From Gavia stellata (taxonomy: Eukaryota), in the NCBI RefSeq assembly GCF_030936135.1, contig NC_082627.1, positions 205,172 through 269,171 of the forward strand: a DNA stretch of 64,000 nucleotides, read 5' to 3'. Below the pieces are notes generated by a model. The model ran no database searches and was not told where the DNA came from. It worked only from the letters and a program-made list of their open reading frames with translations. Of the stretch, positions 27,194 to 37,496 are shown in pieces; the stretch's first letter is position 1; the number at the start of each line of letters is the position of its first letter. The translations under genes were made by a program, and so were the position numbers.

Positions 27194-27199
27194 GTACCT

Positions 27200-27440
27200 G
27201 TCGCCCCCTATAGCAGCCCCAGGGCTCCCTATAGCTCCTCTAGACCTCCATGGTCCCCTATAGGCTCCATAACCCCTCTCTGTAACCCATCACTATAGCC
27301 TTCTGTGGCCACCCATAGCCCCTATAGCTCCTCTAATCCCTCTGTCATCTCTCAGTTCCTGTAGCCCATATAGCTTCCTATGCCCGCTCCTATAGCTGCC
27401 TCATCTCCTCCCACATTGCTCCTATAGCCCCTCCACAGCC
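27200..27440. repeat. Intronic minisatellite CCTATAGC(T/C)CC units (MVP intron 2)
   Basis: ccctatagcagccccagggctccctatagctcctctagacc…cctatagctcctctaatcc is read directly. Confidence 0.85.
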
Positions 27441-27449
27441 TCCTATACC

Positions 27450-27900
27450 CCCAGCGTGTCATCCCTGTCCCTTCTCTGAACCTGTGTACCTGTCCCCAGG
27501 GTGTCCCTGCGGTGTCCTCTCTTCCCAGGGTATCACCTATGTCCCCCACAGCGTCCCCCCATCCCCAGGCTGTCCCCCACATCCCCTGCAGTGAAAACCT
27601 GTGTCCCAGTCCCCAGGGTTTCACCCTTGTGTCCCCCGCCATTACCCCTGTGTCCCCCTTACCCCCACAACCCTGTCATGACCCCCATGTCCCCACATGC
27701 CCCATGTTGACGCCCCAGATACATCCCCACGTCCTCTGCAGTGACCCCCGCCATGGTCCCCATGTCTTCCGCCATGCAGACTGTGTTCCCAGAGTGTACC
27801 CAGAGCATCTCCCAAAGTTCCCCCCGCGCCCCTCGTCCCCATGTCCTCCACATCTCTGCTGTGACACCCATGTCCCCAGGAATTCTCCCTCAACCCCACA
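27450..27900. repeat. Pyrimidine-rich degenerate tandem array (gtccccc…ccatgtcccc units) in MVP intron 2
   Basis: ccccatgtcctc, cccatgtcccca and gtgtccccc recur. Confidence 0.6.
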
Positions 27901-27915
27901 TCCATGTGTCCCCAG

Positions 27916-32803: not shown

Positions 32804-33289
32804 GTGAGCACCCGTGGTTCTGGGCATGGGGGAGAAGGGACATGGCGGGGAATGGAGGATGTGGGGGATTGGGGGTGGCGTAGGGGGAATACATGGGGAT
32901 GGAAGGGGCACAGAGGAGGATGCTGGGCACGAGGGTGCGAGTGATGTTGCTGCGACCCCTGTGCCGTGGTGTGTTCCTTGGGGTATCCTTGGAGTGACCA
33001 GTGTCCTTGGCATGACTGTGGCCAGGTGATGCTGGGCCCAGCGCTGGTGGTGCTGGGCCTGGGGGAGCAGGTGACGGTATGGGGACTGGTGTGTTCTTGG
33101 CACGTTACCCATGTCCTTCACATGTTTTTGGCATGTCACAGAGTGGTGCTGGGTACAGACCTGGTCATGTAGGGCCCTGCGGAGCAAATGACAGTGCAGG
33201 GACTCCTGTGTGACAGCACATTCTTGGCTTCAGTCTGTACGAGTCACACCCAGGGGTCCTCGGCTCTGGAGACCGGAGTGGAAGTCTGG

Positions 33290-34850: not shown

Positions 34851-35135
34851 CTTCAGCCATGCTGTGACCCCATCATCCTGTGGTCCTGTGATATCTCCTT
34901 AGTGTGTCCTTGTCTTGTGACCTTTGTCCTTGGTATGTCACAGGGTGGTGTTGGGCACCCACATGTCACTGCGTGTCCTTGGTCCAGCAGGGTGGCACTG
35001 GGCCCTGGGAAGCAGCTGACAGTCCTGGGCCCAGCGTGTGTTGGCTTGTCCTTGGTGTGCTCTGGGCCCCTCCTGTGCAGGGTGGTGCCCCCAGCATGTC
35101 ACCTGTACCCTTGATGCGCTCCTGCCCTGTCACAG

Positions 35136-35333
35136 GGTGGTGCTGGGCCCCGAGCTGGTGGTGCTGGGTCCCGGAGAGCAGCTGACGGTCCTGTCACTCT
35201 CGGCGGGGCGCCCCAAGCGTCCCCATGCCCGCCGCAGCCTCTGCCTCCGCCTCGGCCCTGACTTCTGCGCTGACATCGTCACCATCGAGACGGCTGACCA
35301 CGCCCGCCTCCAGCTCCAGCTGGCCTATAACTG
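35136..35333 (+). CDS. MVP: MVP exon 10 ([66 protein letters not shown])
   Basis: Acceptor tcacag|g and donor ctg|gtgtgtg. Near-identical to human [66 protein letters not shown]. Confidence 0.92.
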
Positions 35334-35850
35334 GTGTGTGGGACTTCAGGGGGCCGGGTGTGAGCCTTGGGGGCGGGGCTAGGGCTGGGGACAGGGACAG
35401 CTTTGGGACTGGGGGCCCTGGGGCAGGACTTGGGCCATGGGGACATGGTCAAGCTGGGGGTGGGGCCTGGGACTTAGGGGTGGAGTCTGGTGGTATGGGT
35501 GGGGCTAGGCAAGGGGGAGGGGCCTCGGTCTTGGGGCGGGGCCAGAATGGGCAGGAGCCTGCAAGGGGGTGTGGCCTCGTGTGGGGTGTGGTGTGGTCTT
35601 GTGAGTGGGGTCAGGCAGTATGGGCAGGGCTGGGTCTTTGGGGTGGGGCACTGTGGGGGCAGGGCCTCTAGTGAAAGGGCGTGGTCTAGAGTGAGGAGGC
35701 GGGGCTTGGCAGCCAGGTAGAGCCAGACGCCAAATGGCCTTGGGGTGGGGGTGGCTCTGGGACAGGGTGGGGGCACGGCAGTGGGCGGGACCAGGGTGGG
35801 AGCAGCCCATGGTGGGCGAGGCATGAGGGCAGATCCCCCCTGTCCCGCAG

Positions 35851-35989: not shown

Positions 35990-36343
35990 GTCTCCTCAGC
36001 TGCCCCCATGTCCCCCCCACCGCATCCCCTCGGTCATGCAAGCGTGCCCCCACTTTCACCCGCCTCACCCACAACCCCCACTGTTGCCCTGGGTCACCTT
36101 GTGACCTCCTCCATGTCTCCCTGGGTCCCTGATATCCCCTTGAGTCCTTGATGTCCCCAAGTGTCTTGCGTATCACCGGTGTCCCAAGAACTCAAAGATG
36201 TTGAACTACTCAGCCATGTTTGGCTTTAATGAAGCCCCATGTGTTCCCTGCTGCCTCCTCATGTCCCCAGTACCCCAACATCCTCAGTGTCCCCAGGTGA
36301 CCCTGACGTCCCCACGTGTCTCACATGTCTCTGCTGTCCCCAG

Positions 36344-36555
36344 AACTCCAATCGTCTTATCTGCTCGGCTGTATTTGGCTTCGATGAGGGCGGGCGGCTG
36401 CGAGAGCAGCTCTGCTTCGCTCCCAACGGGCTGGTGGTGACAAGCGTCGACATCCAGAGCGTGGAGCCCGTGGACCAGCGCACCCGTGATGCCCTGCAGC
36501 GCAGTGTCCAGCTGGCCATCGAGATCGCCACCAACTCCCAGGAGGCTGCCGCCAG
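36344..36555 (+). CDS. MVP: MVP exon 12 ([70 protein letters not shown]-)
   Basis: Acceptor tcccccag|a and donor gccag|gtcccc. Matches human NSARIIRTAVFGFE…[45 protein letters not shown]. Confidence 0.9.
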
Positions 36556-36612
36556 GTCCCCACGTCCCTCTGTGTCACCTCATGTCCCACCAGGTTCCTC
36601 CTGTGTCCCCCT

Positions 36613-36675
36613 GTGTCCCTCCAGCGCGCCTTCCAGCTGGAGATCAAGATCAGCACTAACTCCCAAGAGGCTGCT
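36613..36675 (+). repeat. MVP: Partial tandem duplicate of the 3' end of MVP exon 12, including a GT donor
   Basis: ccag|cgcgccttccagctggagatcaagatcagcactaactcccaagaggctgctgccag|gtttctg encodes [20 protein letters not shown]. The genuine exon end 57 nt upstream is cagcgcagtgtccagctggccatcgagatcgccaccaactcccaggaggctgccgccag|gtcccc, encoding [19 protein letters not shown]. Confidence 0.75.
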
Positions 36676-37029
36676 GCCAGGTTTCTGTGTCCCTTGTGCC
36701 CCCAAATGTCCCCCCATGCCCCACTACATCCCCCATATCCGTTAAGTCCCCCTATATCTTCCAATGTTTTGTCTTCCTATATGCCCCATGTTACTACATC
36801 CCCCTGTGTCCCTCAATATCCCTCGTGTCCCTAAATGTCCCCCGCATCACCCATGTTCTCCCTACCAATCGTGTCCCCCATACCCCCTACATCCCCCATA
36901 TCCTCAACATGCCCAGTTCTCCCCCCGTGTCCCCAATGTGCCCCACATCCTCAGTGTCTCCCCACACCCCCAACATCCCCTGCATCCCCCGCGCCTCCCC
37001 ACCTCTTGGTCCCTGTCCCCTGTCCCCAG

Positions 37030-37146
37030 GCACGAGGCAGAGCGGCTGGCACAGGAGGCCCGGGGACGCCTGGAGCGGCAGCGCATCCTGGACCAGGCGG
37101 AGGCCGAGCGGGCGCGCAGAGAACTGCTGGAGCTCGAGGCCCTCAG
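37030..37146 (+). CDS. MVP: MVP exon 13 ([38 protein letters not shown]-)
   Basis: Acceptor ccccag|g and donor ctcag|gtcggc. Matches human [39 protein letters not shown]. Confidence 0.9.
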
Positions 37147-37369: not shown

Positions 37370-37496
37370 CGTGGCAGTGGAGAGCACAGGGGCGGCCCGG
37401 GCGGAGGCGCAGGCTCGGGCAGAGGCCGCCCGCATCGAGGGCGAAGCTGCCATCCTGCAGGCCAAGCTGAAGGCTGAGGCCATCGCCATAGAGACG
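37370..37496 (+). CDS. MVP: MVP exon 14 ([43 protein letters not shown])
   Basis: Acceptor gccccccag|c and donor acg|gtgcgt. Confidence 0.9.

Follow-up and report, generated by a model that had tools for sequence, protein, structure and literature searches.

The MVP gene and a second exon-12 end

The window, meaning the whole 64,000-nucleotide stretch of Gavia stellata DNA that was analysed, contains the whole gene for the major vault protein (MVP), on its + strand. The exon model, built from tblastn with MVP and a splice-junction search, comprises 16 coding exons between 26301 and 38259. Its 854-aa translation is 90–93% identical to annotated bird MVPs. The features described here lie around coding exon 12.

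35990..36343, + strand: intron 11, a sense-strand minisatellite of degenerate GTCCCC-type units
36344..36555, + strand: MVP coding exon 12, 212 nt, encoding NSNRLICS...NSQEAAA and two bases of an Arg codon
36556..37029, + strand: intron 12, 474 nt, a degenerate GTCCCC-type minisatellite that houses the downstream copy
37030..37146, + strand: MVP coding exon 13, which starts with G, ends with ELEAL and is the usual splice partner of exon 12

Exon 12 of the window is 88–94% identical to exon 12 of five birds. It is bounded by the acceptor ctgtccccag/ and the donor CAG/gtcccc (the slash marks the splice boundary), with the donor GT at 36556. The donor, CAG/GTCCCC, carries GTCC in all birds examined (also in loci L004–L010) and GTAC in a turtle, and is far from the GTRAGT consensus. 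With a score of -0.1 on a rough, heuristic matrix, it is tied with the donor of exon 11 for the weakest in the gene. The position of intron 12 is the same in turtle and in all birds compared; its length is 73 nt in turtle versus 409–1767 nt in birds.

The end of exon 12 occurs a second time in intron 12, in head-to-tail orientation and at an offset of 125 nt. A blastn comparison against a 3.5-kb local database aligned 36608–36709 with 36483–36585 at 73.8% identity over 103 nt (E 8.9e-16); in the core of the copy, 49 of 61 bases match the parent. A tblastn search with MVP also detects the copy, at 36616–36681 (E 0.001). A sequence-only reading of this DNA had reported a tandem duplicate of the exon-12 3′ end and its donor in the next intron, and the alignment bears this out. 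The duplication has the following parts.

36483..36585, + strand: parent segment, made up of the final 73 nt of exon 12 with the donor and ~30 nt of intron 12, from repeat finding and blastn self-comparison
36556..36624, + strand: pyrimidine-rich spacer of 69 nt between the genuine donor and the AG of the copy, from alignments
36608..36709, + strand: downstream copy of the exon-12 3′ end, donor and intron start, from blastn, with orthologous copies in hoatzin, gull and merganser
36625..36680, + strand: candidate pseudo-exon between AG and GT, 56 nt, a frameshift if included
36654..36671, + strand: best-conserved core of the downstream copy, CACTAACTCCCAAGAGGC in the window sequence

The copy has its own AG-preceded start, with AG at 36623–24 (ccctccag/CGCGCC), and its own donor, with GT at 36681–82 (GCCAG/gtttct). 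The sequence-only reading had noticed both signals, although the junction coordinates that it gave, 36613 and 36675, are off by 12 and 5 nt. It had also assigned a peptide to the copy, and this assignment holds when the copy is read from the CAG at 36622: the frame is open and yields a recognisable 19-residue peptide, with (R) next.

Copies of exon-12 boundaries in other birds

Genomic loci were compared from kiwi, hoatzin, ostrich, emu, merganser, ptarmigan, black-headed gull and a turtle. For hoatzin, the set held the assembly itself and two metagenome contigs that are 99.8% identical to it. An orthologous downstream copy sits at the same place in hoatzin (L002, L003 and L009), gull (L007) and merganser (L005), so that four neognath lineages, counting the window, carry it. 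Searches with each species' own exon as probe, together with a fuzzy search for the core, did not find the downstream copy in ptarmigan, ostrich, emu or turtle. The kiwi contig stops 74 nt past the exon-12 donor and is uninformative on this point. The read-through ORF of the window, used as a query, matched in only two bird loci, and a scan of metagenome DNA with a bird-specific exon-12 pattern returned one contig, which is hoatzin.

The presence of the copy in hoatzin, gull and merganser points to an origin before the split between Neoaves and waterfowl. The downstream copy is thus at least as old as the last ancestor that Neoaves share with waterfowl (Anseriformes), which lived ~85–90 million years ago, and the ptarmigan lineage, if no other, has since lost or erased it. 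The sequence-only reading had proposed comparing the orthologous region in other birds, with absence or decay of the duplicate as the outcome that would count against its use. The outcome is mixed, in that four neognath lineages still carry the copy but it has decayed as coding sequence.

The other end of exon 12 has been duplicated as well, into intron 11. This upstream copy, which the sequence-only reading overlooked, matches its parent at 68% over 72 nt (E 9.5e-7, local blastn). Across species, the upstream unit ends at one recurrent novel junction, ...GAxGAG/GCCCCxTGTCC.

36161..36232, + strand: upstream copy of the exon-12 acceptor and the first ~44–46 nt of the exon, at an offset of 155 nt, ending in ...GAAG/CCCCATGTG
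Upstream copy number, neognaths and emu: one in the window, gull and merganser, two in hoatzin, six in emu
Upstream copy number, remaining loci: at least nine in kiwi, none in ostrich, ptarmigan and turtle

The breakpoint is common to palaeognaths (kiwi and emu) and neognaths, which makes the upstream duplication at least as old as the last ancestor shared by all living birds. In kiwi (L001, Apteryx rowi PTFB01002646.1, 2245–3830), intron 11 holds at least nine tandem units of ~150–180 bp, with an assembly gap in their midst. In every unit an intact 'gtccccag' acceptor is followed by the first 46 nt of exon 12, and the match to kiwi's real exon start covers 51–56 of 56 positions. Such similarity implies recent amplification or concerted evolution of the kiwi array. 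The six emu units (L010, 25794–26320) are more diverged than those of kiwi. These arrays pose the question of how the spliceosome ignores near-perfect decoy acceptors that adjoin the real one.

Both introns that flank exon 12 are rich in GTCCCC, with six occurrences against 0.4 expected in intron 11 and nine against 0.7 expected in intron 12. This strand-specific minisatellite is 13–15x enriched in introns 2 (27194–27915), 11 and 12 only. TRF finds arrays with periods of 10, 18 and 19 in intron 12. Several minisatellite units read TGTCCCCAG and resemble MVP's own acceptor sites, and the beginning of intron 12 likewise has the look of a minisatellite unit.

Exon ends have been copied into introns repeatedly in the MVP gene. 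The 5′ end of exon 10 (35134–35334) has three partial copies in intron 9.

33025–33078: partial copy of the exon-10 5′ end, 85% over 54 nt
33140–33205: partial copy of the exon-10 5′ end, 70% over 66 nt
34991–35027: partial copy of the exon-10 5′ end, 81% over 37 nt

Reading frame and divergence of the downstream copy

The piece between the AG and the GT of the downstream copy, 36625–36680, is 56 nt long, and 56 mod 3 is 2. When it is included in silico as a cassette, the frame is shifted up to a stop within exon 14, at 37468, which lies 215 nt upstream of the final exon junction. A stop in this position is the signature of an NMD substrate and not of an isoform. Extending exon 12 to the donor at 36680 adds 125 nt, which is likewise 2 mod 3 and out of frame, and leads to a premature stop in exon 14. 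The 19-residue peptide cannot be spliced in frame because its Q codon, the CAG, provides the acceptor AG. Besides this AG, only two others restore the frame. The first, at 36592–93, delimits an 87-nt piece and was rejected as its upstream intron would span only 38 nt, too short for vertebrate splicing. The second, at 36652–53, delimits a 27-nt piece and was rejected for its poor, purine-rich acceptor context.

The other species tell the same story. From AG to GT, the copies of the window, hoatzin and merganser measure 56 nt and that of gull 53 nt, so that no species has a multiple of 3. The offset from parent to copy takes the values 125, 126, 147 and 124 nt in the four species, a range of 124–147 nt, and in hoatzin a read-through past the genuine donor meets a stop after three codons. 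The four downstream copies have no frame relationship in common.

Between-species identity of the downstream copy is 0.71–0.91, a comparison of four species with low power. The corresponding values are 0.74–0.91 for the 69-nt spacer (0.88–0.91 within Neoaves and 0.74–0.79 to merganser), 0.70–0.81 for the next 60 nt of intron 12 downstream, and 0.90–0.95 for the real end of exon 12. By this measure the downstream copy diverges at the intron rate, in a neutral-like manner. The peptide is not conserved, reading QCTSQFAVRITTNSQEAND in merganser and QRTFQLETKTSTNSQEATA in hoatzin. Between copy and parent, nine of the 12 differing bases fall in five codons in which the amino acid is changed, and three are silent. 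The window and hoatzin copies differ by four non-synonymous changes, two synonymous changes and one donor change. The encoded peptide thus shows no purifying selection: its identity resembles that of the flanking intron, and the changes are mostly non-synonymous. Two adjacent changes specific to the window's copy (GCC ACT to GCT GCT) go towards the window's own parent. Gene conversion that keeps the copy similar to its parent was considered and set aside, two sites being too few for support.

Some parts of the copy have changed less. Its AG and GT are kept in all four species and the G at -1 in three, the hoatzin donor reading CAC/GT in place of CAG/GT. Overall identity of the copy equals that of its flanks; an 18-nt core within it and a ~40-nt pyrimidine block just ahead of its AG, the acceptor tract, are nearly invariant and have changed less than the remaining intron, which is weak evidence given four species and blocks chosen afterwards. 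The core reads CACTAACTCCCAGGAGGC, invariant, in hoatzin, gull and merganser. Some 36–41 nt before the AG of the copy are nearly invariant among window, hoatzin and gull, and 36 nt are identical between window and hoatzin. A structured RNA (snoRNA, miRNA or mirtron) behind the conserved spacer was sought, with no Rfam match above noise and a fold z-score of 0.11.

Where the parent exon has CACCAAC..., all four orthologous copies have CACTAAC through a C-to-T change (36654–36660 in the window). This heptamer is a perfect branch-point consensus; in the downstream copy it stands without an acceptor at a suitable distance downstream.

Annotated proteins were surveyed in a set of 126 full-length MVP models that includes Gnomon isoforms of at least eight birds, among them hoatzin, kittiwake, swift, crane, ptarmigan and guineafowl. 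None of the 126 has an insertion between ...NSQEAAAR and HEAER, the sole exception at this junction being a prairie-chicken isoform that retains intron 12 (Tympanuchus isoform X2, P0237). A protein search with the hypothetical in-frame insert gave no match that spans the insert. Proteins from NMD-targeted isoforms are not normally annotated, and for this reason absence from protein sets is weak evidence on the use of such an isoform.

Annotated variation around exon 12 occurs in Nyctibius grandis isoform X3 (P0231), the same Tympanuchus isoform X2 and Grus americana isoform X2 (P0221). Among these isoforms, one is without exons 11 and 12 (AYNWH/EAERL), one retains intron 12 and one swaps exon 11. 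In birds, the splicing of this part of the transcript may be prone to error.

Origin of the downstream copy

Taken together, we consider it likely that the downstream copy is a non-coding pseudo-exon, the relic of an old tandem duplication at the exon 12/intron 12 boundary of MVP. Slippage or unequal exchange within the GTCCCC-type repeats would have duplicated each boundary of exon 12 along with adjacent repeat units. In one event, a segment of ~125 bp that spans the exon 12/intron 12 boundary would have been duplicated, placing the last ~73 nt of exon 12 and the donor into intron 12. In a separate event, intron 11 would have received the acceptor together with the initial ~46 nt of exon 12. 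The genuine donor (36555) would still be joined to exon 13 (37030), with the copy removed as part of the intron, and the copy, once in place, has drifted at the intron rate. It is unable to add protein, since the 56-nt cassette and the 125-nt extension both shift the frame. The sequence-only reading had left a dead pseudo-exon open as one of three options, and it is this option that intron-rate divergence, mostly non-synonymous change, the failure to find the copy in ptarmigan, ostrich and emu, and its absence from the MVP models favour.

The alternative that survives best is a conserved poison or decoy pseudo-exon, which would tune MVP output either by being spliced in occasionally and sending the transcript to NMD, or by binding splicing factors non-productively and thereby altering how the weak genuine donor is used. 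We regard this as unlikely, and occasional inclusion of the copy, scored by itself, as similarly improbable. The copy is bounded by AG and GT, as poison exons are, and its inclusion produces in silico a stop well over the ~50 nt upstream of the last junction at which a poison exon is recognised. Both splice signals are retained in every carrier, and none of the four lengths (56, 56, 53 and 56 nt) is a multiple of 3. However, the retention of four splice-site bases over this tree has a chance of ~1 in 5 by a rough estimate, and in hoatzin the -1 position of the donor is C instead of G. The signals themselves look serviceable: the acceptor has a pyrimidine fraction of 0.82, the donor of the copy (CAG/gtttct) reaches 1.6 on the same rough heuristic matrix, where the genuine donor has -0.1, and the 69-nt upstream intron is near the workable limit, comparable to MVP intron 3 with its 73 nt. 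The invariant core in three of the four species and the 36 nt before the AG that window and hoatzin share would also fit a function, but these blocks were picked after inspection among only four species, and the overall divergence of the copy is that of the neighbouring intron. Established poison exons usually stand out from their flanks by much higher conservation and are represented in transcripts, whereas the MVP copy as a whole is conserved no better than its flanks and appears in no transcript or protein model. That the copy was not found in ptarmigan, ostrich and emu further suggests that it is dispensable.

A bolder version holds that Neognathae have retained the copy for ~90 million years in a regulatory role, as a poison or decoy pseudo-exon that competes with the weak exon-12 donor and tunes MVP (vault) expression, with the decoy acceptors of kiwi and emu as a related phenomenon. 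We think this distinctly unlikely. If poison-exon use were true, it would offer a handle on MVP regulation in birds.

The two coding options of the sequence-only reading fare worse. It had proposed that the donor of the copy lies in the same phase as the genuine donor, so that a cassette micro-exon could insert a second 19-residue copy in frame, or that the copy could serve as an alternative end of exon 12; either would give a second segment of ~19 residues at the start of the vault cap helix. The open frame with its recognisable peptide is compatible with this, as is the in-frame 87-nt cassette that the AG at 36592–93 would yield. Yet the piece that begins at the cited AG shifts the frame in all four species, the 87-nt cassette requires the 38-nt upstream intron, and the longer exon end is out of frame at an offset that varies between species. 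The peptide has diverged, and the insertion is missing from every MVP model. Alignment to solved vault structures puts the exon 12/13 junction at about residue 674 of human MVP, which we take, from the rat vault structure, to lie within the long cap helix. An insert of 19–29 residues at this junction would probably disturb the 39-fold helix bundle. In frame, in selection on the peptide and in protein models, the downstream copy does not behave as a coding alternative exon, and we consider a coding role highly improbable. An assembly artefact, in which wrongly joined reads or haplotypes created the duplicate in a microchromosome region rich in repeats and in GC, has a precedent of sorts in the gapped repeat array of the kiwi contig but is exceedingly improbable, as the two copies match at only 74%, which is not what collapsed or duplicated reads would give, and the same copy recurs at the same place with species-specific substitutions in four independent assemblies and two metagenome contigs.

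Returning to a non-coding relic, the downstream copy can be set beside several known systems. Its closest likeness is to other pseudo-exon relics of partial tandem duplication, in which a diverged head-to-tail copy of an exon end, with a splice site, likewise lies in the adjacent intron, evolves like intron and remains outside the annotated mRNA. Compared with these, the MVP copy is unusually old (Neoaves and Anseriformes) and is paired with a duplication at the other end of the exon, and this upstream partner has grown to arrays of six to at least nine units in emu and kiwi. Tandem exon duplication reportedly gives rise to mutually exclusive or cassette alternative exons, as Kondrashov and Koonin in 2001 and Letunic, Copley and Bork in 2002 are said to have described. 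The MVP copy likewise adjoins its parent and has its own splice signals; in contrast to such exons, it reproduces only about one third of its parent, has a length not divisible by 3, and encodes a peptide free of purifying selection.

A further parallel is intron gain by tandem duplication of an exonic segment that contains an AG/GT proto-splice site (PMC2891723; PMC3265369, PMC4974935). In this process, divisibility of the length by 3 decides between viability and degradation of the unspliced or alternatively spliced forms (PMC2891723). That introns grow through tandem duplications which take exon boundaries with them is likewise known (PMC2891723), and in a repeat-mediated form this is the simplest account of the MVP copies. 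The common feature is a short tandem duplication that doubles the splice signals. In MVP, by contrast, the unit spans a pre-existing boundary instead of lying within an exon, and no new intron was gained: the old one was lengthened. Our literature search found nothing on MVP pseudo-exons or on the splicing of bird MVP.

The downstream copy is ordinary in kind, and it alters nothing in what is known of vaults. It provides a datable example of minisatellite-rich, GC-rich avian introns that grow by engulfing copies of exon boundaries. It also carries a caution for sequence annotation: a duplicated exon end with an AG and a GT should be taken for a micro-exon only where both the frame arithmetic and cross-species conservation speak for it, which is not the case here.

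The same exon end may have been duplicated elsewhere. P0116, a read-through ORF of 120 aa in the JGI metagenome data, from a non-bird, fish-like vertebrate, contains the homologous MVP exon end twice, separated by a 35-aa CA-repeat spacer. It is apparently an independent, recent duplication of this exon end, or else an assembly artefact.
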